A DNA stretch of 64,000 nucleotides, taken from the NCBI GenBank assembly GCA_049517055.1, contig JBEKSN010000002.1, positions 433 to 64,432 of the forward strand, given 5' to 3'. This stretch comes from Candidatus Acidiferrales bacterium (GTDB lineage: Bacteria; Acidobacteriota; Terriglobia; Acidiferrales; UBA7541). Shown here in pieces: positions 3,286-37,478 of this stretch; within the stretch, counting starts at the first letter, position 1, and each line of letters begins with the position of its first letter. The position numbers and the translations under genes are program-made. The notes beneath the pieces are model-generated. The model was given only the letters and a program-made list of their open reading frames with translations, searched no databases and was not told the DNA's origin.

Positions 3286-5028
3286 TCATTGGCCTGCCAA
3301 GAGTTTTTGCAGCTCCAGCCGCCGGGTTATGATTCGCCGTAAGTCCTCTGCAGCAGGTTTTGCTTCCAGCTGCTGTTGCAATTCGACGAGTTCCTGCTCC
3401 ACGCGTCTGTTGCGGAGCACGCTCAGGCAGCTTTCCGCTTCGTCCCAGGTGTGCTCCGAGAAAGACTCAAAGAAAATCTCGAACAGCATGCGCCGGTCTC
3501 GTTCGTCAAGAGCTTCGGCGAAAGTGGCCGGATCCGAGCGCTCGCCCCCCTTGGCGATGAGCAAATCGAATATCTTCTCGGTCTCCAGGCCTCGATGCAG
3601 TCCACTGGAAACAATTTCTTGGGCAAGTTTTTCGCGGAAGCCATCCGCTTCCGCCAGCATGTGAATCAAACGGCGTTCAGCGCCCTTGATGCTCGGCCCC
3701 AGCAACTCGGCCTTCGGTTTCACCTCGCTGCGGCGCTCGGTGGCCGCGCGGCGAAGCGCTTCCCGCAAGACAGGCTCGTCCACGTGCAGTTCGGAAGCGA
3801 TGCGCGTGGCCCACTCCGAGCGCAGCAGTCCGTTCGGAAGCCGTTGGATGTATGGCATCAGAAAATTGAGAGCCGCCACCCGTCCGTTCGCGGTAGTGCG
3901 ATCCATCAATCGCGCGCGGCCAATCAGATAGTCCAGGTACGGCGGAGCCTGCGTCAAAAGTTTCTTGTAAGCCTCGGCGCCCTGATCTTTCAGGAATTTG
4001 TCAGGATCGGCGCCCCCCGGAAGCGCAAGCACTCGGACGTCAAACTCTTTCTCGAGCAGAAGGATCAGGGAGCGCTCTGTGGCCGCGTGTCCCGCAGTGT
4101 CCGGATCGTAATTCACGACGACTCGCCGCGTGAAGCGGCCGAGCAATTTTATCTGTGGCTCCGCGAGACTCGTTCCGCAACTGGCGATCACGTTCGCGAT
4201 TCCAGCCCGCGCTACAGCAATAGCATCCATGTACCCCTCGACCAAAATGCCGAAATCATTTTGCCGCAGGGCCTCCTTGGCCCGGTCGAGATGATAAAGA
4301 ACGTTGCTCTTCGAATAGATGGGCGTCTCGGGCGAGTTCAAATACTTGGGCATGTCGTCGCCCATCGCGCGCCCGCCGAACGCAATTACCTTGCCGGCTT
4401 CATTAGCTATGGAAAACATGATGCGGCGGCGAAAACGATCGAAGAAGCGGCCGCTCTGCTCGCGGGAAAGAAGCCCCGATGCTTCGAGCAGCTGTTCCGG
4501 ATATTTCTGCTTCAGAAACCGCAGCAGCGCATCTCCCGAAGACGGCGCATATCCCACCCCGAATTTCATCATCGCTTCGTGATTCAGCCCGCGGTCTTCG
4601 AGATACGCAAATGCGACCCTTCCCTCAGGACTCTCATGCAATTGGCGCGCGAAAAAAGCTGCGCCTTCGCGGTGCATCTCCACCAGCGCACTTCGTTGCT
4701 GGTTTTCGCGGCGCTCTTCTGGCGAACGCTCGCGCGGCTTGGGAATCGTGATTCCGCATTTCTCCGCGACTGTGCGTATCGCTTCCGGAAACGTACACTT
4801 CTCCAGCTCCATCACGAATTTGAAAACATCGCCGCCCGCGCCGCAGCCAAAGCAGTGGTAAATCTGTTTCACGGGATGTACTGCAAACGAAGGCGTCTTT
4901 TCTTGGTGAAACGGACACAGCCCGGTGAAGTTCTGGCCGCTTTTCTTCAGGCGCACGTACTCGCCGATCACGCGGACTACGTCCGCCTGTTGCTTCACCC
5001 GCTCCGCGAATGAACCTGCTTCAGCCAT
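3286..5028 (-). CDS. dnaG: DNA primase
   Basis: 580 aa. Zinc-ribbon CPFHQEKTPSF...CFGCG and a TOPRIM core (EGYMD). Sits in the classic dnaG-rpoD arrangement. Confidence 0.95.
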   Translation of the reverse strand: MAEAGSFAERVKQQADVVRVIGEYVRLKKSGQNFTGLCPFHQEKTPSFAVHPVKQIYHCFGCGAGGDVFKFVMELEKCTFPEAIRTVAEKCGITIPKPRERSPEERRENQQRSALVEMHREGAAFFARQLHESPEGRVAFAYLEDRGLNHEAMMKFGVGYAPSSGDALLRFLKQKYPEQLLEASGLLSREQSGRFFDRFRRRIMFSIANEAGKVIAFGGRAMGDDMPKYLNSPETPIYSKSNVLYHLDRAKEALRQNDFGILVEGYMDAIAVARAGIANVIASCGTSLAEPQIKLLGRFTRRVVVNYDPDTAGHAATERSLILLLEKEFDVRVLALPGGADPDKFLKDQGAEAYKKLLTQAPPYLDYLIGRARLMDRTTANGRVAALNFLMPYIQRLPNGLLRSEWATRIASELHVDEPVLREALRRAATERRSEVKPKAELLGPSIKGAERRLIHMLAEADGFREKLAQEIVSSGLHRGLETEKIFDLLIAKGGERSDPATFAEALDERDRRMLFEIFFESFSEHTWDEAESCLSVLRNRRVEQELVELQQQLEAKPAAEDLRRIITRRLELQKLLAGQ

Positions 5029-5133
5029 CGGGACGTTATTCTAAGCCAATTATCGCACGGGGTGTTCGCGCTGATGTTTTCGCGCGATGTAAAGTTTGAA
5101 GATCTTGGGGCGAGTAACGACTGCCGGCGCGCT

Positions 5134-29111: not shown

Positions 29112-30146
29112 CTAGGAGCGGGCCGGCTGCTGTTGCGTTAGGCAGTGGATGGTGCCGAATCCCCAGACTAAATCGACGGAATGGATTCCGACTACGGAGC
29201 GCGTAGGGAATAAATCGCTGAGGATGCCGAGAGCTACGCGGTCGTTGGGATCGTTAAATGTGGGCACTAACACCGCGGAATTCGAGATGTAGAAATTTGC
29301 GTAACTGGCGGGGAGGCGCACGCCATCGAAAAAGAGAGGAGACGGCATCGGAAGCGCGATGGCGTGTATTTTGCTTCCGTCTTCCAGCTTTGCGCCGCGC
29401 AGGCGTTCCCAATTTTCTTCGAGCGCCCGGTAATTCTTCTCGCGCGAATTCTTTTCACGGCAAAGCACGACGGTGCGTCGATTCACGAAGCGGCATAAAT
29501 CATCGACGTGGCCGTGCGTGTCGTCGCCGGCGATTCCCTTTCCGAGCCATATAATATTTTTTGCGCCGAGCGATGCTCGCAGAACGGATTCGATCTGGCT
29601 ACGAGTAAACCCGGGATTGCGGACCTGGCGCTTTTGATCGAGAAGACACTCTTCGGTGGTGAGCAGCGTGCCGGAACCGTTCACGTCGATGCTTCCGCCT
29701 TCGAGAACTACGTCGCGCCCGTCTAGCTGGACCGGAAAGATTTTCATTTTCAACCGGCGCGCCGCTTGTGCTGGAATTGCATCGTCTTTTTTCCAGTCCG
29801 GGTAGTGCGCCCAGGCGTTGAAGCGGAACCGGGCGATGGCAACCTCCGGGCGGGGCTTGGCGCGTTTGACAAAGATGGGGCCGAAGTCGCGCGTCCATCC
29901 TCTATTCGTGGGGAAGCGCAGAAACTGTACTCTGCTCAAGCTGACGCCTGCGCTTTTCAAAACTCTGCGCGCTTGCGCTTCATGCGCTGCTGAATTCACC
30001 AGGATGCGAACGAGTTCGCCGGGAACAATTTTGCGGACGATCTCGCCGTAAACCCAGTGGATCGGAGCGATCTTTCCGGGCCAATCAGTTTCATTGTGAG
30101 GCCAGCCGATCCAGGTGGCTTCGTGAGGCGCCCATTCGGCGGGCAT
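29112..30146 (-). CDS. aguA: Agmatine deiminase
   Basis: The protein starting MPAEWAPHEATWIGWPH and ending ...GTIHCLTQQ (catalytic Cys) matches the agmatine deiminase family. The upstream part of ORF 29112..30386 overlaps aguB and is Arg/Pro-rich noise. Confidence 0.85.
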   Translation of the reverse strand: MPAEWAPHEATWIGWPHNETDWPGKIAPIHWVYGEIVRKIVPGELVRILVNSAAHEAQARRVLKSAGVSLSRVQFLRFPTNRGWTRDFGPIFVKRAKPRPEVAIARFRFNAWAHYPDWKKDDAIPAQAARRLKMKIFPVQLDGRDVVLEGGSIDVNGSGTLLTTEECLLDQKRQVRNPGFTRSQIESVLRASLGAKNIIWLGKGIAGDDTHGHVDDLCRFVNRRTVVLCREKNSREKNYRALEENWERLRGAKLEDGSKIHAIALPMPSPLFFDGVRLPASYANFYISNSAVLVPTFNDPNDRVALGILSDLFPTRSVVGIHSVDLVWGFGTIHCLTQQQPARS

Positions 30147-30208
30147 CCGAAAGCCGAGAGACGCCGGGGTGTTTTCTTCGGCGGAGCGGACGATGCGGCG
30201 GGGAGGCT

Positions 30209-31108
30209 TCAAGGTTTTTCGTCGAGGAAACGCTGTTCGAGGCCAGCGTAGGCATCGATTCGGCGGTCGCGCAAGAAGGGCCAATTGCGGCGAACATCTT
30301 CCAGATGGGCGAGATCTACTTCGCCATATAGGATTTCTTCGCGGTCGATGGAAGCTTCGGCGATGACGACTCCCTGAGGATCGCAAAGGAACGAGCTGCC
30401 CCAGAATTCGAGGCCGGCTCCGCCTTCGGCGGGAGTTTCGTGTCCGACGCGGTTGACGGCCGCGACGTAGAGGCCGTTGGCGATGGCGTGGCTACGCTGG
30501 ATCGTGCGCCACGAATCGCGCTGCGCTTCGCCGTTGGATGCTTTTTCGCTGGGATGCCAACCGATCGCGGTGGGATAGAAAAGGACGCATGCGCCGTTGA
30601 GCGCGGCGAGGCGCGCGCCTTCCGGGTACCACTGATCCCAGCAAATTAACGTGGCGATCTTGCCTGCGCTGGTGGAAAAGGCGCGAAAGCCCAAATCTCC
30701 CGGCGTGAAATAAAATTTCTCGTAATAAGCGGGGTCGTCGGGAATGTGCATTTTGCGGTAGACGCCGGCGATGCGGCCGTCGGAGTCAATGATCGCGGCA
30801 CTGTTGTGATAAATTCCCGGCGCCCGGCGTTCGAAGAGCGGTGCAACGATAACGGTCTTAGTTTTTTGTGCCACGCGACCCAATTCTTCCGTGGTGGGTC
30901 CTGGCACGGACTCCGCCAATTCGAAATTCGCGGTGTCTTCGCGCTGGCAGAAATATTGCGAGCGAAAAAGTTCCGGCAAGCAGACCACCTGGGCGCCCGA
31001 GCGGGCGGCCTCTTCAATGCGAGAGGTCGCGTGCGCGAGGTTTTCGGCAGATTTGGCGCTGACGGCCATCTGCACCAGAGCAACGTTGAATTTGAGCGGC
31101 GTCGGCAC
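30209..31108 (-). CDS. aguB: N-carbamoylputrescine amidase (nitrilase superfamily)
   Basis: 299 aa. CN-hydrolase motifs (CLPELF, catalytic LICWDQWYPE). Adjacent to aguA. Confidence 0.85.
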   Translation of the reverse strand: MPTPLKFNVALVQMAVSAKSAENLAHATSRIEEAARSGAQVVCLPELFRSQYFCQREDTANFELAESVPGPTTEELGRVAQKTKTVIVAPLFERRAPGIYHNSAAIIDSDGRIAGVYRKMHIPDDPAYYEKFYFTPGDLGFRAFSTSAGKIATLICWDQWYPEGARLAALNGACVLFYPTAIGWHPSEKASNGEAQRDSWRTIQRSHAIANGLYVAAVNRVGHETPAEGGAGLEFWGSSFLCDPQGVVIAEASIDREEILYGEVDLAHLEDVRRNWPFLRDRRIDAYAGLEQRFLDEKP

Positions 31109-31219: not shown

Positions 31220-31717
31220 TCAAGGTTTTTCCTTCTTCAATTTCAGTGCTTTCTGGTCCTGATATTCTTTCCACGTGAGGAATATCAGCAAGCCGTCAAA
31301 AAGAGTGAGGATAATAAGCGCCCACGAATGCGTATGTGTGAATCTGTAAAGTTGGTAGACCATAAAGGCGCCGAATACCGCAATCGTCAGCGGGTAAGCC
31401 CAAAGCCTATTGGCCCAGAGGCAGACTACCAGCACAACCTTAACGAGGCCATGCGAGAGGAGATAGAGCGAGGCGAACAGGGGGCTTCCGCTGGCCAATT
31501 TCTGTGAAGCAGCGCTTATGTGGCGGAAAATAATATCGTGCTTATCGCGGGCGAGCTCATGCTGGCACAGCGCTTGCAACCAAGCGTTCAGCGAGTTGAC
31601 TTTAAACCACAGCAACGCGCCGCCGACCGCTTCTAATAGTCCGTCAACGCCCTTGATGGTGATGCCTACACGAAACGAATCGTGAAGCAGGATGTGAGAA
31701 AGCTTTTTTTTCAACAT
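31220..31717 (-). CDS. DUF2127-like membrane protein
   Basis: 165 aa with four predicted TM helices and an N-terminal GVDGLLEAVGGALLWF motif. Confidence 0.5.
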   Translation of the reverse strand: MLKKKLSHILLHDSFRVGITIKGVDGLLEAVGGALLWFKVNSLNAWLQALCQHELARDKHDIIFRHISAASQKLASGSPLFASLYLLSHGLVKVVLVVCLWANRLWAYPLTIAVFGAFMVYQLYRFTHTHSWALIILTLFDGLLIFLTWKEYQDQKALKLKKEKP

Positions 31718-31850: not shown

Positions 31851-32876
31851 ATGAGGTTGCGAGCGCTTGTCATCTTCTGCGGCATTTTGGTTTGCCTGTC
31901 GATCGCGCAAGCGCAGGATAAGGCACCGAACGTTGTGAAATATCACGCGACACTGGAGACGGTGAAATATGTTTACGGCGTAGCGCCACCTGTAGCACGA
32001 CTAGCGCCGGGAGATGTTCTCGAGACGAATACGCTTGACGCATTCGGGGACGCCATTCAAAAGCCCGGCGATACGCTCGTGCTGGTGAAAGGCGACAACC
32101 CGCTCACCGGTCCTTTCCATATCGAGGGTGCTGAACCGGGTGACACGATCGCCATCGACTTCATGACGTTGGAAGTGAACGGGGCGCAAGGAGTGGGCGC
32201 GTTTGCGCCGGGCTTTGGCGCGCTTAACTCCACAAACTACACGCCGATGATTCAGGCTCCCCTTCCCGAGCGCATATGGCTCTATCCGATTCATCCTGAT
32301 GACAACACTGCGACTTTTCAGGCGCATGATTCGAATTTCTCGGTGAAGATCCCGCTGCATCCTTTTCTGGGATGCATTGGTGTGGCGCCCTCCGACGGCG
32401 AAGCTCGCAGCTCCGTGGTTCCCGCTGAATTCGGAGGCAACATGGACTCTTCTGAGGCGAGTGTGGGTAACACTCTTTATTTACCCGTGAATGTCCCGGG
32501 CGCGCTGCTCTACATGGGCGACGGGCACGCGGCCATGGGCGATGGTGAAATTGCCGGCACGGCGATTGAGGTACCGTTGCGCGTTCGGCTGCGCGTGCGC
32601 GTAATCAAGGGACAAAAAATTGATTGGCCGCGTTTCGAAAATAAAGATGAAATCATGGCCGTCGGCATCTACCGTCCGCTTGACGATTCATTACGAATCG
32701 CGTTTACCCAGCTTGTCGGCTGGATTCATCGGGATTACGGGTTGTCCGAGCTGGACGCGTACGAATTACTCTCGAAAGTCGCCACGATTCACCTTGCTGA
32801 AATGGTCGATCCGAATTACGTTGTGATCGCGAAAATTGACAAGAAGTACCTGCCCCCGCGCAAAACTTCGCACTAA
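31851..32876 (+). CDS. Acetamidase/formamidase-family protein (secreted)
   Basis: 341 aa with a signal peptide. Family motifs: FGGNMD and GDGHAAMGDGEIAGTAIE. Confidence 0.8.
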   Translation: MRLRALVIFCGILVCLSIAQAQDKAPNVVKYHATLETVKYVYGVAPPVARLAPGDVLETNTLDAFGDAIQKPGDTLVLVKGDNPLTGPFHIEGAEPGDTIAIDFMTLEVNGAQGVGAFAPGFGALNSTNYTPMIQAPLPERIWLYPIHPDDNTATFQAHDSNFSVKIPLHPFLGCIGVAPSDGEARSSVVPAEFGGNMDSSEASVGNTLYLPVNVPGALLYMGDGHAAMGDGEIAGTAIEVPLRVRLRVRVIKGQKIDWPRFENKDEIMAVGIYRPLDDSLRIAFTQLVGWIHRDYGLSELDAYELLSKVATIHLAEMVDPNYVVIAKIDKKYLPPRKTSH

Positions 32877-32935
32877 GTAATGGGGAGAAACGACGCCTTT
32901 CCTCCCGTGGATCCGGGTTTATCCGCGCAGTATCG

Positions 32936-32964
32936 TTGACAGTGAGGCGCTTGGCACCTAGAAT
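32936..32964 (+). promoter_or_regulatory. Sigma-70-type promoter TTGACA-N17-TAGAAT upstream of the sigma-54 activator gene
   Basis: Exact -35 hexamer at 32936..32941, a 17-nt spacer, and a -10 TAGAAT at 32959..32964. Confidence 0.55.
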
Positions 32965-33028
32965 CGGCCCCACGCGCGGGATGCCTTTTGACATGGTTGG
33001 TTTGTGTTAGTCCCCGCCGGAGACCGCC

Positions 33029-34417
33029 ATCACACCCGCTGCGACTAAACCCAAAGTTGCGATTGTTGACGATGACCATAGCCTTCGCTCAAAGATTGCG
33101 TCCGCTCTGCGATCGGAGTTCGAAGTCTTCGAAGGCGAGGATATGGCAGCGGCCTACAGCCTCCTCCAAGGGTCCGCACTTGACGTTTTGCTCCTGGGCC
33201 TCCCGCTCGGTGACGCGGGGGTTCGCGAATGCACCGAGCTGCTTGCCCGGCTGGTCGGAAGCGAAATTGACACCCTCGTAATCGTGCTCAGTTCTGACAA
33301 AACAAAAGCCACCGCTTTGAAAGTGATCGACGCAGGCTCTTACGACTACTTCATCAAGCCCATTGACACGGACGTTCTTCGGCATCTACTCGAGCGAGCC
33401 GTTGAAAAATTACACATTCAGCGCGAAAACCGAATTCTCCGTCAGGAGATAAGCCGCAAGAGCACTCATGGCGATTTAATCGGATCGACCGACGCCATGA
33501 GCCATGTTTTCGATTTCATAAAGCGAATGGCCCGGACGACCACCAATGTCATCATCCGCGGAGAGAGCGGGGTGGGTAAAGAACTTGTCGCAAGGGCCCT
33601 TCACGAACAGAGTCCGCGACGAAACCGTGCATTCGTTAGCGTGAATTGCGCCGCGCTTCCCGAAGGCTTAATGGAAGCTGAGCTATTTGGCTATGAGAAG
33701 GGAGCCTTCACCGGCGCAACGGCCATGAAGGAAGGGCGCGTGGAAATGGCCCACCAAGGAACGCTGTTTCTTGATGAAATTGCGACACTTACGCCCGCTC
33801 TCCAGAGCAAACTCTTGCGTGTGTTGGAGGATCGCTCGTTCACTCGACTAGGCGGCAAAAAGCCCATCCGCGTGGATTTCCGCCTAATTAGTGCGACAAA
33901 CGAAGATCTGGAGGAGATGGTTCGCGAGGAACGGTTTCGCGAAGATCTCTATTACCGAATTCACGTGGTGCCCATTTTCGTGCCCTCTCTACGCGAGAGA
34001 ATGGAAGACATACCGGTGCTTACGGATTACTTCGTCAGCGTTTATTGTGCTGCCAATAGTCTCCCCCCAAAGCGCATTGCGGACGACGCGATGCTGGCCC
34101 TGAAGCGCTACCCGTGGCCTGGGAACGTCCGCGAGCTCCAGAATGCAATTCAAAGGCTGGTTATAATGACGGACGGGGAGGTGATCTCGTTAAAGGACCT
34201 CCCCGGTGAGATTGTGCAAGCTGCCGGCCGGGATTCGCGCAACCGTTTCCGTCTCCCCTCAGGTGGAATAAATCTGGCTAAGGAAATGGAGACTTTCGAG
34301 CGTCGCTGGCTTCAGGAAGCTTTAGAGCAGGCTAAAGACGGGAAAGCCGATGCGGCGCGACTGCTGGGAGTGGACCGGAATCGGTTGAACTACCTATGTC
34401 GTAAGTACAATCTATAA
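33029..34417 (+). CDS. Sigma-54-dependent transcriptional activator (atypical REC - AAA+ - Fis HTH)
   Basis: AAA+ Walker A GESGVGKE, the sigma-54 contact loop GAFTGA, and a C-terminal HTH (AARLLGVDRNRLNYLCRKYNL). The first ATG is at 33143, but the receiver N-terminus (KVAIVDDDHSLR) is encoded in frame upstream with no ATG, GTG or TTG after the in-frame stop at 33008. An ATC at 33029 sits 6 nt after a GGAGA SD. Confidence 0.85.
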   Translation: MTPAATKPKVAIVDDDHSLRSKIASALRSEFEVFEGEDMAAAYSLLQGSALDVLLLGLPLGDAGVRECTELLARLVGSEIDTLVIVLSSDKTKATALKVIDAGSYDYFIKPIDTDVLRHLLERAVEKLHIQRENRILRQEISRKSTHGDLIGSTDAMSHVFDFIKRMARTTTNVIIRGESGVGKELVARALHEQSPRRNRAFVSVNCAALPEGLMEAELFGYEKGAFTGATAMKEGRVEMAHQGTLFLDEIATLTPALQSKLLRVLEDRSFTRLGGKKPIRVDFRLISATNEDLEEMVREERFREDLYYRIHVVPIFVPSLRERMEDIPVLTDYFVSVYCAANSLPPKRIADDAMLALKRYPWPGNVRELQNAIQRLVIMTDGEVISLKDLPGEIVQAAGRDSRNRFRLPSGGINLAKEMETFERRWLQEALEQAKDGKADAARLLGVDRNRLNYLCRKYNL

Positions 34418-34552
34418 GCTTTTGGATGACTTTTTAATCGTCGCGGTGAGAATTTCAACAGAATTTTGCGGTACTTTTGACCCGGAAAGGGCTCGAATAC
34501 TCTAACCTCCTCTCTTTCAGTCCTTTAACTTCCCTGCGTTTCCCTCCGACAT

Positions 34553-34568
34553 TGGAACCAGTTTTGCA
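34553..34568 (+). promoter_or_regulatory. Sigma-54 (-24/-12) promoter TGGAAC-N5-TTGCA for peptide gene A
   Basis: TTGGAACCAGTTTTGCA matches YTGGCACGrNNNTTGCW with exact GG-N10-GC spacing. It lies ~50 nt upstream of the ATG at 34616. Confidence 0.7.
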
Positions 34569-34615
34569 CAGAAGAAGGTGTGACCCAAGCTGTACCTCAA
34601 CGCGGAGGAAGTATC

Positions 34616-34699
34616 ATGGCAAAGAAAATCTTGAAGAAGGCAAAAAAGTTGGAAGAAACGAAGCCCCTCACAAGAGTCGGCTGGGCGAGTAAGACCTAA
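34616..34699 (+). CDS. 27-aa lysine-rich small peptide A (MAKKILKKAKKLEETKPLTRVGWASKT)
   Basis: ATG 7 nt after a GGAGGAA SD, with a sigma-54 promoter upstream and a terminator downstream. Paralogous to 35114..35197. Too short for the ORF track. Confidence 0.65.
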   Translation: MAKKILKKAKKLEETKPLTRVGWASKT

Positions 34700-34766
34700 G
34701 CGTTTTCGCATTACAGGTGCAGCGGCTCGGCTGCGCACCAAGAGATAGCCAATACGGAACTAGCGG

Positions 34767-34800
34767 GCTGCCACCGAAAGGCTGGCAGCTCTTTCTTTTT
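34767..34800 (+). terminator. Intrinsic terminator after peptide gene A
   Basis: GCTGCCA-loop-TGGCAGC stem followed by a T-rich tail (CTCTTTCTTTTT). Confidence 0.6.
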
Positions 34801-35043
34801 ACCAGAAGTAACCTCGCCCGGGATTCGCCCCAGCAGTTCATACCCACGTCTTATTCCGACACTTCTCTTCCAAGGCTCTGCGATGGGGATGAGTACCTAA
34901 GGCATCGCCTGCATATTGAATTATTCAACTCAAACTCAAAAATTAAACACATTTGCTATCGCAGGCCGTTTGCGCGCTGCTCCTTGCCGTCGATAAGTGC
35001 TTTCAAATCAAGTACAGCTCCTCAAGTGGCCCGGTTCACAGTT

Positions 35044-35059
35044 TGGCGCGCGGATTGCA
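35044..35059 (+). promoter_or_regulatory. Sigma-54 (-24/-12) promoter TGGCGC-N5-TTGCA for peptide gene B
   Basis: TTGGCGCGCGGATTGCA has exact consensus spacing. It lies ~55 nt upstream of the ATG at 35114. Confidence 0.7.
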
Positions 35060-35113
35060 CTAGCAGCAGTGTAGGCAGCAGGAAAACAAAAAATTCTAAG
35101 GAGACTCAAGACC

Positions 35114-35197
35114 ATGGCGAAAAAGACAGTGAAAAAGGGAAAGAAGCTCGGATCAGTGAAGCCTCTCAGCTATCACGGGCCAGTTCGCACTAAGTAA
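35114..35197 (+). CDS. 27-aa lysine-rich small peptide B (MAKKTVKKGKKLGSVKPLSYHGPVRTK)
   Basis: ATG after an AAGGAGA SD, with a sigma-54 promoter upstream and a strong terminator downstream. 13 of 27 residues are identical to peptide A, concentrated in MAKKxxKKxKKLxxxKPL. Confidence 0.65.
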   Translation: MAKKTVKKGKKLGSVKPLSYHGPVRTK

Positions 35198-35254
35198 CTT
35201 GGACCTGAAGCAAGCGGGCTTCGTGCCTGCCAAAGTTAGCAGTTGCACTACCAA

Positions 35255-35290
35255 GGGCTGCCGTCCCAGGAACGGCAGCCCTTTTTTATT
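35255..35290 (+). terminator. Intrinsic terminator after peptide gene B
   Basis: Perfect 10-bp stem GGGCTGCCGT / ACGGCAGCCC with a 7-nt loop, followed by TTTTTTATTT. It abuts the stop of the convergent 35331 gene. Confidence 0.8.
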
Positions 35291-35330
35291 TGATGACTGA
35301 GGCTTCTGGCAGCCAGACGGGCCGGGTCTC

Positions 35331-37478
35331 TCACCAAAACTGCGAACGCACCCAGCGCCATGTCGCCAGCCCGCTCTGCCAGGCCAAAGAATGTCTGGGC
35401 CCGGAAATTTTCGCTTTTCCGGTCATGCCTTCCCGCAGGGACCCATCGGGGTTTGGAATTTCCATCTCAACTGCAACGAAGTTTGCCAACTCTTGCCCTA
35501 ATCGCGTGAGCTTCTCTGTCTGCGCGACCGGATGATCCAGCGCCGCGGCCGGAAGTATTTTGTCGATGTGGCCCGTGTAAGTTCTGTACGGAAACGGGAG
35601 CACCTTCACCTTTGCAGAGGCGCCGGGTTGAACGTCCGGAAGTTCCCGGTCCTGTACAAGGATACGCGCCTTCATGGTGCTTCGATTCACCAGCCGCGCA
35701 AACTCGTCCCCCGCCGAAAGGTATTCGCCAGCCTTCTGTTCCACATTTGAAGTAGTGACGACCCCGTCCATGGGAGCTCGAATTTCGAGGTTCTGCAGTC
35801 TTTTCTGCGCTACGGAAAGCTCTTGCTCAAGCCGGCCGCGATTGCGAACCACTTGCGCCGCTTGACTGAAGTCTGAGCGATCCTGATTATTGCGGAGGTT
35901 GCTGCTGGCGAGCCCTAATTGTTGGGTAAGCGATTGCGCGTCGGCACTTATTTCGGGATTCTCCAAAATGGCCAATATTTGCCCCGCTTTTACTACATCG
36001 CTCTCGCGGACAAACACTCTTTGAATTCTGCCGTCAACGGCAGCCCGAACGCGCACATCCTTTCCGGGCTCGAGCACCAAATCGGTAGAGACCTTCGAAG
36101 AAAACGGGGGCAACAGAAATAGCAGAACCAGTCCAAGAGCGCCAACTTGCTGCGCCCGGGTCATTTTCCAGGCCATATATTTCTCCTTCTTGTCCCGCAT
36201 CCAAGCCCGTACGACGGGCAAAGCTTTTCGCAAACCCTTTCTTGCAAAGAAATAGATGACGCCCAGGGTTGCCAGATAGCCCCATTCGTCCCCCAGTTGG
36301 CTCACGAGCACATTCTTAGCAAACACAAGCATGAGAATCAGGAGCGACGAGCTGTAAATCACAGCTGAAATTCCGAACAGGAAGAAAACACGGCGCTGGC
36401 GCTTGCTGGACGGCGGCAAGTCTATGTCATGCCGAAAAATGTACTTCTGCACCCAGGCTCGCAAGTAGCCGAAAGACTCTTCACGCAGGTTATCAATTTT
36501 GAGGAATTGCGAGAGCGCATAGTAGCCGTCGGCTTTGATTAGCGGGTTCAAGTTCACGAGCGCGCCCTGAATGCCGCTCAGCAGCATCATTTTGTAGAAG
36601 AAGTCATTCGTCAGCGAGCCCGGTGCCGTGAAATGCCAGACCAATGCAGCCACTCCGCAGATCACCAGTTCAATCCAAATGCCCGCGAAGATGACCCACT
36701 GACGCGGAGTCCCTGTCTTGAACAGAAGAATGTCCGTGGTGTCAGTAAAAAATGCGGGAGTGAAATAGATGAGCAAAAAACCCATCTGATGAACCTCGCC
36801 GCCAAAATGTTTACAAGTAAGCCCGTGACCGAATTCGTGTATGGCACCCAGACCCAAGAGGAGGAACCAAAAGACCCAGATGTCGTAGGCGCTTTTACCT
36901 GCAAAACTATATAAGGCCTCCGTGTCCTGCTGCACGCGGGTCCAATCGCCGGCGAGCAGATAAACCGCCACAATAAATAGGAACAAAGAAAAGATGACAA
37001 AGCCCTTGGTAAACATCCATCCGAGATAGCGATCCAACTTAGCGAGCGTCTTGTCCGGATCCCAAGCTTTAAAGCTGATGTAGAGGACACTCGATTGCTC
37101 GACCCGACCTTTGCGCTCGTCGCGAATGCGCTCAAGTACAGCCAGGTTTTTTTCCCCGACCGAGCGTTCCCACATAGTGGCTTCCACCGAGTCGAGGAAG
37201 TCGAGCACGTCGGCCTCGCTGGTGGTCAAATCGGGATCCTTTTCAGACATGGCCTGTGCGATCTCGGCAGCCGTACGAGTTCCGTCGCAAAGTGACAGCA
37301 GTTGATATTCCGTGGCCCCGTATCGGTTGTAGGAGTTCGTCTCGCGGTTTTTGACCACGTAACTGATTTCGCCCGCTACCGTTTGTTCGCTGATGCGCAG
37401 ATCGGTACGGAGTTTGGGTCGTTTAAGACCTTTCGCCAGGACGCTGGAAACTTGAAGGCTGGTAGGACCGAAACGCAT
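35331..37478 (-). CDS. PqqD-like (RRE) domain / M50 site-2-protease-like metalloprotease / HlyD membrane-fusion domain fusion protein
   Basis: 715 aa. N-terminal PqqD-like segment (YQLLSLCDGTRTAAEIAQAMSEK...EADVLDFLDSV). HExxH in AIHEFGHGLTCKHFGG and a second S2P motif NLNPLIKADGYYALS within TM helices. C-terminal HlyD barrel-sandwich and coiled coil (VDGRIQRVFVRESDVVKAGQILAIL, LEIRAPMDGVVT). Confidence 0.8.
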   Translation of the reverse strand: MRFGPTSLQVSSVLAKGLKRPKLRTDLRISEQTVAGEISYVVKNRETNSYNRYGATEYQLLSLCDGTRTAAEIAQAMSEKDPDLTTSEADVLDFLDSVEATMWERSVGEKNLAVLERIRDERKGRVEQSSVLYISFKAWDPDKTLAKLDRYLGWMFTKGFVIFSLFLFIVAVYLLAGDWTRVQQDTEALYSFAGKSAYDIWVFWFLLLGLGAIHEFGHGLTCKHFGGEVHQMGFLLIYFTPAFFTDTTDILLFKTGTPRQWVIFAGIWIELVICGVAALVWHFTAPGSLTNDFFYKMMLLSGIQGALVNLNPLIKADGYYALSQFLKIDNLREESFGYLRAWVQKYIFRHDIDLPPSSKRQRRVFFLFGISAVIYSSSLLILMLVFAKNVLVSQLGDEWGYLATLGVIYFFARKGLRKALPVVRAWMRDKKEKYMAWKMTRAQQVGALGLVLLFLLPPFSSKVSTDLVLEPGKDVRVRAAVDGRIQRVFVRESDVVKAGQILAILENPEISADAQSLTQQLGLASSNLRNNQDRSDFSQAAQVVRNRGRLEQELSVAQKRLQNLEIRAPMDGVVTTSNVEQKAGEYLSAGDEFARLVNRSTMKARILVQDRELPDVQPGASAKVKVLPFPYRTYTGHIDKILPAAALDHPVAQTEKLTRLGQELANFVAVEMEIPNPDGSLREGMTGKAKISGPRHSLAWQSGLATWRWVRSQFW

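Follow-up and report, generated by a model that had tools for sequence, protein, structure and literature searches.

We analysed a 64,000-nucleotide stretch (hereafter the window) of a metagenome-assembled genome from the 'Candidatus Acidiferrales' group (Acidobacteriota; peat/soil; 354 contigs), in which a forward-strand gene encodes a sigma-54 activator with an N-terminal receiver domain (Table 1). The gene is preceded by a promoter, a short leader and a Shine-Dalgarno sequence, and is followed by two small lysine-rich peptide genes and a convergent protease gene. Two traits of this gene are the subject of the present analysis. At the codon where its product should begin it reads ATC, and its receiver carries Gly where the phospho-acceptor Asp is expected. 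An earlier note on this DNA, made from the letters and an open reading frame (ORF) list, had proposed both.

Direct reading of the sequence covered positions 32700-33500. After the in-frame TAG that closes the frame upstream, translation continues as SPPETA-ITPAATKPKVAIVDDDHSLRSK..., the full part ahead of the first Met being SPPETA-ITPAATKPKVAIVDDDHSLRSKIASALRSEFEVFEGED-M.... As the earlier note had stated, the frame holds no ATG, GTG or TTG between this TAG and the ATG at 33143, the first canonical codon, which encodes Met39 in numbering from the ATC. The ATC itself lies where the note had placed it, downstream of GGAGA, whereas the spacing had been overstated by one base: the spacer (ccgcc) measures 5 nt, not 6. 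The 16S rRNA of this genome ends in ...GGATCACCTCCTTTCT, which is complementary to GGAG.

Table 1. Features of the activator locus and of infC in the same genome; coordinates refer to the window unless a contig is named
Feature	Coordinates	Strand	Basis or remark
Sigma-70-type promoter	32936..32964	+	11/12 consensus positions; present in 91/94 loci
5' leader, ~58 nt if transcription begins ~7 nt past the -10 box	32965..33028	+	GC-rich, moderately structured, noncoding
In-frame TAG closing the frame 5' of the gene	33008..33010	+	Position and type of upstream stop vary among orthologs
Shine-Dalgarno GGAG(A), 5 nt 5' of the start codon	33019..33023	+	Sole conserved upstream block; complementary to the 16S tail
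Putative ATC initiation codon	33029..33031	+	ATC/ATT/ATA in 72 orthologs of one clade; ATG/GTG there in outgroups and in L110/L111
Sigma-54 activator coding sequence, 462 aa + TAA stop	33029..34417	+	Domain profiles, structure matches
Pseudo-receiver domain, residues 9-125	33053..33403	+	PF00072; (beta-alpha)5 fold in model
First canonical in-frame start, ATG (Met39), judged not used	33143..33145	+	Residue 39 variable; inside alpha2
GGC = Gly57, phospho-acceptor position (end of beta3)	33197..33199	+	Alignment and model
Sigma-54 interaction AAA+ domain (Walker A GESGVGKE, GAFTGA, Walker B LFLDEI)	33476..33976	+	PF00158
Sigma-54 promoter-like TGGAAC-N5-TTGCA before peptide gene A	34553..34568	+	One mismatch
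Peptide gene A, 27 aa, lysine-rich (MAKKILKKAKKLEETKPLTRVGWASKT)	34616..34699	+	Conserved unit
Sigma-54 promoter-like TGGCGC-N5-TTGCA before peptide gene B	35044..35059	+	One mismatch
Peptide gene B, 27 aa, lysine-rich (MAKKTVKKGKKLGSVKPLSYHGPVRTK)	35114..35197	+	Conserved unit
PqqD-like/M50 protease/HlyD fusion gene, convergent, module partner	35331..37478	-	Profile searches, synteny
infC (IF3), locus L109	G000 contig C63, ~4570-5091	+	ATC start after GGGAGGTGA

By its domains and motifs, the gene product is a sigma-54 activator of the NtrC family. Pfam searches recovered Sigma54_activat (PF00158; 2.2e-70, 236 bits), AAA_lid_14 and Response_reg (PF00072; 49.8 bits, cut-off 30.2), and the translation contains the EKGAFTGA loop together with intact Walker motifs. 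The HTH_8 profile scored 21.7 bits against a cut-off of 22, and the structure model has three C-terminal helices at residues 416-459. The sigma factor gene rpoN is present in the genome (409.6 bits, over cut-off). An AlphaFold2 model built from 41 orthologs (mean predicted local distance difference test score 72.7, receiver block means mostly 81-90) placed beta1 at residues 9-13, alpha1 at 17-27, beta2 at 32-36, alpha2 at 39-48, beta3 at 53-58, beta4 at 83-88 and beta5 at 106-109, with a long alpha5-linker helix at 114-147. Its top structural matches were NtrX, NtrC1 (1NY5, 4L4U), NtrC4, LuxO, FleQ and VpsR. The first position of the PF00072 profile falls on Val10 (33056), upstream of the first ATG. 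Because beta1, alpha1 and beta2 all precede residue 39, initiation at Met39 would delete all three, which bears out and extends the note's statement that such a start removes beta1 and the acidic pocket.

To place the start site in a comparative frame, we gathered about 95 orthologous loci (L numbers) from a search of related genomes and a one-genome-per-species scan. With the Val of IVDD (the beta1 motif) as anchor in each locus, we inspected the codon lying 12 positions before it. This codon is ATC in about 70 species of 'Candidatus Acidiferrales', and the ATC-type set comprises 72 non-identical species-level orthologs with ATC or, rarely, ATT (one, L041) or ATA (four, including L045, L053 and L064). 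In L078, L090 and L096 the ATC or ATA is shifted one codon downstream. Every ATC-type locus has a GGAG-type motif 5-8 nt ahead of the start codon. Many of these loci lack any in-frame canonical start from the upstream stop to beta1, with L003 and L009 running for more than 60 codons without ATG, GTG or TTG; where upstream canonical codons are present in orthologs, their position is not conserved. Deeper orthologs carry a canonical codon at the same position -12, namely GTG in L094 and L100-L102 and ATG in L093 and L095, and orthologs from other families (L011-L016 and L019) have ATG exactly there. Recurrence on this scale also bears on the possibility that an assembly or base-call error turned an ATG into the ATC. 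A fragmented metagenome-assembled genome could contain one, yet some 70 assemblies, made independently in different studies and on different sequencing platforms, show the same codon, and the probability of such an error is practically negligible.

Codon statistics were computed for 70 unique ATC-clade sequences anchored on the start. At codon 1, A and T are invariant and the third base has an entropy of only 0.36, against 0.7-1.95 at other third positions (means 1.59 for codons 2-12 and 1.37 for codons 13-45) and 1.35 and 1.27 at two internal Ile codons. Three-base periodicity sets in at codon 2, with entropies of 0.71/0.49/1.59 at positions 1/2/3 over codons 2-12. In the same sequences no codon periodicity was found 5' of the ATC, where the sole conserved block is GGAG at -11 to -8 (entropy 0.11-1.0). 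The distance from GGAG to ATC varies by 1-2 nt between species, and the upstream stops differ in kind and place. Spacing changes that are not multiples of three, together with varying stops, indicate that the upstream stretch is not coding.

These data weigh on two other placements of the start. In the first, translation would begin at the ATG at 33143, yielding a 424-residue activator with a truncated, non-functional receiver and leaving the upstream conservation to serve some other purpose. Met39 is the sole ATG/GTG/TTG in the frame and presumably what a gene caller limited to these codons would pick, and many database entries for orthologs are similarly truncated. However, residue 39 is Tyr, Phe, Leu or Met across orthologs and so does not mark a conserved start; it lies inside helix alpha2 of the model, and no Shine-Dalgarno sequence was seen ahead of it on reading the sequence. 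Codons 2-38 moreover show third-position periodicity and encode the invariant DDD pocket, and L003 and L009 offer no canonical start at all over their long open stretches. We consider initiation at Met39 highly improbable.

The second placement puts a canonical start further upstream, for example at the ATG at 32993 with read-through of the TAG at 33008, or in another frame with a frameshift. That ATG is in frame, five codons before the TAG; L030 has no stop, so that an in-frame ATG 12 codons upstream might serve there; and in some orthologs an in-frame TTG or GTG occurs by chance further upstream. Against this, the orthologs have TAG, TAA or TGA stops at varying positions, L033 has ACG in place of the ATG at 32993, L103 has that ATG in another frame, and the distances of leader elements from the ATC differ by non-multiples of three. 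Apart from GGAG, the upstream region shows neither periodicity nor conservation, and an Rfam scan of 32700-35400 returned no relevant family and no frameshift or recoding element in the leader. An upstream canonical start is thus very unlikely, and the ATC at 33029 is the initiation codon supported by the comparative evidence, as the note had proposed: orthologs keep ATC/ATT/ATA or ATG/GTG at the homologous codon, and periodicity begins there.

Maximum-likelihood analysis placed the 72 ATC/ATT/ATA rows in a single clade (support 99/97), the base of which is poorly resolved. Moving outward, the tree passes from the ATC clade to a sister GTG clade, then to two ATG lineages with Gly or Ser at the acceptor position, and finally to ATG orthologs with Asp. 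Metagenomic relatives fetched as DNA have GTG (L110) and ATG (L111) at the same site, with the same GGAGA and promoter, and quick trees placed these two and four more canonical-start proteins among the ATC sequences. Judged from these trees, the codon has switched between near-cognate and canonical forms more than once while its position stayed constant. Repeated flips of this kind at one position are the behaviour of an initiation codon, not of an internal Ile codon.

The second trait concerns the receiver. Codon 33197-33199 encodes Gly57 within LDVLLLGLPLGD, and alignment to receivers of solved structure (NtrC1 1zy2/1ny5, RssB 3eq2 and ARR1, with 9h6e among the entries) put the acceptor Asp on this residue, which closes beta3 in the model. 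The Asp-to-Gly replacement described in the earlier note therefore holds. Across the ATC clade, 61 rows have Gly at the acceptor position and 11 have Ala; the six intermediate orthologs carry Gly or Ser, and all seven outgroup orthologs carry Asp. The other receiver-bearing sigma-54 activators found in this genome all retain Asp. Without an acceptor Asp, the receiver would not be switchable by a histidine kinase. The absence of a neighbouring kinase, also remarked on in the note, extends to about 7 kb on either side of the gene, and the genome has no PrsK-type kinase (best match 98.6 bits, cut-off 300). Beside the Asp-bearing outgroup orthologs, loci spanning only about 1.5 kb per side contained no kinase-sized ORF.

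The remainder of the domain is well preserved. The acidic run comprises D14, D15 and D16, with D14 and D15 invariant in the 72 clade members, and S88, K110 and Tyr107 (position K-3) are likewise invariant in the ATC clade, where mean pairwise identity is 80% for the receiver and 86.5% for the AAA+ domain. Given the invariant pocket and this level of identity, the receiver is, on the conservation evidence, a selected pseudo-receiver and not a decaying one. The same observations bear on the idea that the locus is a pseudogene in decay, with start codon and acceptor residue both gone. Two such 'defects' do co-occur, and L010 (G005:C13) and L089 seem frame-disrupted in the receiver; yet about 90 genomes have an intact ORF, the motifs Walker A, Walker B and GAFTGA are unbroken, both domains keep the identities just given, and the Shine-Dalgarno sequence, the ATC, the promoter and the peptide/protease synteny are all conserved. 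Decay is extremely unlikely as an explanation. In L010 and L089, similarity to the query begins only at residue 64 and the first part of the receiver lies in another frame, which reflects either a real disruption or an assembly indel.

Loss of phosphorylation does not by itself specify the activity of the protein. In regulators of the NtrC1/DctD type, the unphosphorylated receiver represses assembly of the ATPase ring. Given the alpha5-linker helix of this type in the model, 'phosphorylation-independent', the term that the note had used, is not to be taken as implying 'constitutively active'. The tree places the loss of the acceptor Asp on the long branch to a 78-member group, earlier than the change of start codon. 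Because Asp loss preceded the weakening of the start (to ATC, and to GTG in the sister clade), the order suggests that dose control took over after the phospho-switch was lost. Pseudo-receivers have been defined as profile-recognised receivers missing at least one of five catalytic residues; they make up about 2% of PF00072 domains, and expression level is one of the control modes expected for them (PMC12632262).

The promoter matches 11 of 12 consensus positions, with TTGACA (32936-32941) and TAGAAT (32959-32964) separated by 17 nt. This element was the only promoter-like match within 32500-34800, and TTGACA-N17/18-(CC)TAGAAT recurs in 91 of 94 orthologous loci, distant Asp-bearing orthologs included. 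Such conservation gives strong support to the promoter being real, so the near-consensus sigma-70 element picked out in the note stands. The distance from promoter to start is 12-90 nt, and 38-90 nt in all loci but one. The short one is L019 (G025:C242), a distant Asp-bearing ortholog in which TAGAAT ends 12 nt before the ATG, making the mRNA nearly leaderless. We also considered, and rejected, a sigma-54 promoter at TGGCAC (32953) that would overlap the -10 region: orthologs do not conserve its GG, and its -12 half matches poorly.

Leaders of ATC-type orthologs are 38-90 nt long and moderately folded (mean z-score about -1.35 relative to shuffled sequence), and single-sequence folds often contain a hairpin that closes directly 5' of the Shine-Dalgarno sequence. 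A conserved leader RNA structure was not borne out: RNAalifold on 23 leaders gave four pairs, -0.6 kcal/mol and almost no covariation. In many orthologous leaders a 5'-proximal GGCNCGGGAC-like stretch can pair with GTCCCCGCC before the Shine-Dalgarno sequence. Some changes in this pairing appear compensatory (GGCG/CGCC versus GGCT/AGCC), and the consensus fold is weak. The leader of the window also contains an in-frame mini-ORF of five codons (ATG GTT GGT TTG TGT TAG, 32993-33010, forward strand). As a translational coupling device it was rejected: it occurs in the closest relatives only, lacks a Shine-Dalgarno sequence, and is broken by the ACG of L033 and the out-of-frame position in L103. 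Its stop is lost in L030, and the mini-ORF is probably a product of chance.

The translation machinery of this genome appears ordinary. Its tRNA set includes one initiator-type CAU tRNA, one elongator Met tRNA and one GAU Ile tRNA. One further CAU tRNA resembles tRNA-Ile and is probably the lysidine-modified tRNA-Ile2. A special AUC-reading initiator tRNA was sought and rejected, as the genome has no initiator-like GAU tRNA.

A second ATC start is found in infC, which encodes initiation factor 3 (IF3). In this genome its ATC lies seven bases after GGGAGGTGA, and no ATG, GTG or TTG occurs before the conserved N-terminus; by this reading, AUC demonstrably serves this organism as the start codon of infC. 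Expression of infC, which elsewhere starts at AUU, AUC or AUA, is autoregulated through IF3 discrimination; infC (in E. coli) and pcnB start at AUU. Streptomyces infC starts at ATC (PMC5472188). To see whether starts of the form ATH (ATA, ATC or ATT) are common here, a paralogy screen was applied to 2087 ORFs with at least 20 codons ahead of the first canonical start. The activator gene was the only credible case combining a Shine-Dalgarno sequence with an ATH start, and the remaining matches resembled antisense shadow ORFs or fragments. A genome-wide habit of ATH starts was accordingly rejected on one credible case in a screen limited to paralog-bearing families; the screen is blind to single-copy genes and missed infC. 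AUH starts seem rare in this genome.

Downstream of the activator, each of the two 27-residue peptide genes is preceded by its own sigma-54 promoter-like element (Table 1). The activator gene heads this conserved module, which also contains a membrane protease-adaptor. Among 73 loci whose downstream sequence extends for at least 1.5 kb, 61 have one or more such promoter-peptide units together with the convergent M50-HlyD gene, and the protease gene also adjoins the activator in Asp-bearing outgroup orthologs. Because of its position and the promoter type of the peptide genes, the activator is most likely the dedicated regulator of this peptide/protease module. The best NCBIfam model for the protein is PrsR, the PEP-CTERM-box response regulator (TIGR02915), matched over the full length; identity with PrsR was rejected, since the score of 414.4 bits falls short of the cut-off of 502.6.

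Taken as a whole, we consider it likely that the gene specifies an AUC-started NtrC-family pseudo-receiver activator in which the acceptor Asp was lost first and whose output would be low and subject to IF3. In the mechanism that we propose, the deeply conserved sigma-70-type promoter would drive transcription, and the ordinary initiator tRNA would read the AUC at 33029, 5 nt after GGAG. A strong promoter combined with an AUC start would produce many transcripts, each rarely translated, and hence a low level of an activator that phosphorylation no longer restrains. As a near-cognate codon, the AUC would make initiation subject to IF3 discrimination, as in infC and sigR. In Escherichia coli, AUC initiation reaches about 1-2% (0.02-3%) of the AUG level (bioRxiv 10.1101/063800). 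The earlier suggestion that a weak start keeps the protein level low, in the manner of infC, is plausible, and it is strengthened because infC of this genome also starts at ATC. The likely targets would be the two sigma-54-promoted peptide genes directly downstream. On the evolutionary side, the ancestral ATG was weakened after Asp loss, becoming ATC in one lineage and GTG in the sister lineage, and the ATC has since been kept in at least 72 species. ATC and GTG are each one change from ATG and two from each other, and so look like two independent weakenings.

Several points weigh against this account. The case for the start site comes from sequence comparison, and the 72 ATC codons among kin are few independent events, amounting in effect to one origin long held. 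Once metagenomic proteins are added, canonical starts reappear among ATC-type sequences, which takes two changes on well-supported branches and up to six overall; the weak codon is therefore, as far as those placements go, not obligatory. The Shine-Dalgarno core is just 4 nt long and predicted to be mostly paired (unpaired probability 0.29), and the start efficiencies cited above are E. coli values and not values for Acidobacteria. IF3 dependence, a low protein level and the target promoters are what we infer. Finally, the NtrC1-type linker helix suggests that the receiver may hold the ATPase off, in which case the protein may still depend on another input, for example a ligand or a partner, for its activity. 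A bolder version of the account is doubtful in our estimation: after the phospho-acceptor was lost, a translational input would have replaced the kinase input, the AUC shared with infC would put the activator under IF3 proofreading, and the peptide/protease/export module would switch on when IF3 activity per ribosome falls. If true, the module would be controlled by the condition of the translation apparatus and not by a signal from outside.

Comparison with known systems delineates what is shared. Like infC, the activator gene combines a near-cognate AUH start behind a Shine-Dalgarno sequence with cross-species conservation and mis-annotation by gene callers. Unlike infC, its product is a transcription regulator and not IF3, so that no autoregulatory loop arises, and its GGAG is much shorter than the GGGAGGTGA of infC. 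A second parallel is Streptomyces sigR, in which IF3 represses a non-canonical GTC start (Feeney et al. 2017, PMC5472188). Both are transcription regulators with a conserved non-canonical start and a conserved ribosome-binding site, both are conserved across a genus-level group with canonical starts in distant relatives, and both are mis-annotated in databases. The two differ in codon (AUC versus GUC), in protein class (sigma-54 activator versus extracytoplasmic function-type sigma factor) and in phylum. In sigR the start codon sets the dose, as it would in the activator, which is known from sequence and has no anti-factor partner that would need stoichiometric balance.

At the protein level, the activator shares with NtrC1, DctD and NtrC4 (PDB 1NY5, 4L4U, 3DZD) the three-domain architecture, 38-40% identity over the region aligned in the structure search and the long alpha5-linker helix between receiver and AAA+ domain. 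Those regulators have the acceptor Asp and cognate kinases, whereas the activator has Gly and no nearby kinase. In this respect it resembles pseudo-receiver regulators, the sigma-54 activator FleQ included, which have a receiver fold without phosphorylatable Asp and an orphan gene, and which are expected to be controlled through their expression level or through some non-phosphoryl input (PMC12632262). The N-terminal domain of FleQ forms a separate family (PF06490) whose model has none of the five active-site residues (PMC12632262). In the activator, in contrast, the domain fits PF00072 well and retains DD, S, K and Y, the Asp being the one residue lost. Unlike PrsR, the activator lies beside a peptide/protease/adaptor module and not in a PEP-CTERM/exosortase neighbourhood, and it has no PrsK.

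Near-cognate starts, a regulator controlled through its start codon (sigR) and pseudo-receivers are, from the published examples, each already known. This case is specific in that a single sigma-54 activator unites both traits, that the conservation reaches deep, that the order of events is resolved and that the gene is linked to a peptide module. The locus provides a well-supported natural AUC start outside infC, in a transcription regulator, for which the only experimentally studied parallel that we found in the literature is Streptomyces sigR with its GTC start. The order of events is relevant to the regulation of pseudo-receivers, a question still open (PMC12632262), and a probable dedicated activator is identified for a sigma-54-driven peptide module, so far uncharacterised, that occurs widely in peat/soil Acidobacteriota. 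Public annotation of the family is inconsistent and in several respects wrong. The 120 database homologs (P0002-P0121) have at least 8 different called N-termini; 46 of them are called from a GTG inside beta1 ('VDDD...' or 'MDDD...', 450 aa), and other calls extend to a chance upstream TTG or GTG. Such inconsistent gene calls distort domain and family statistics.

The wider neighbourhood comprises agmatine deiminase, CN-hydrolase, DUF2127 and formamidase-like genes upstream, and, downstream, the peptide genes and M50-HlyD gene followed by HlyD, GAF-HlyD, STAS and PhoU genes. On the reverse strand at 29112-31108, the agmatine deiminase (PAD_porph) adjoins the CN-hydrolase, which is N-carbamoylputrescine amidase-like, so that a putrescine-synthesis pair lies upstream of the regulator. 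The DUF2127 gene, which runs in the opposite direction, contains a perfect sigma-54 consensus on the forward strand (TGGCAC-N5-TTGCA, 31563-31578). This site lies 288 nt ahead of the formamidase-like gene (31851-32876), which could be sigma-54-dependent too.

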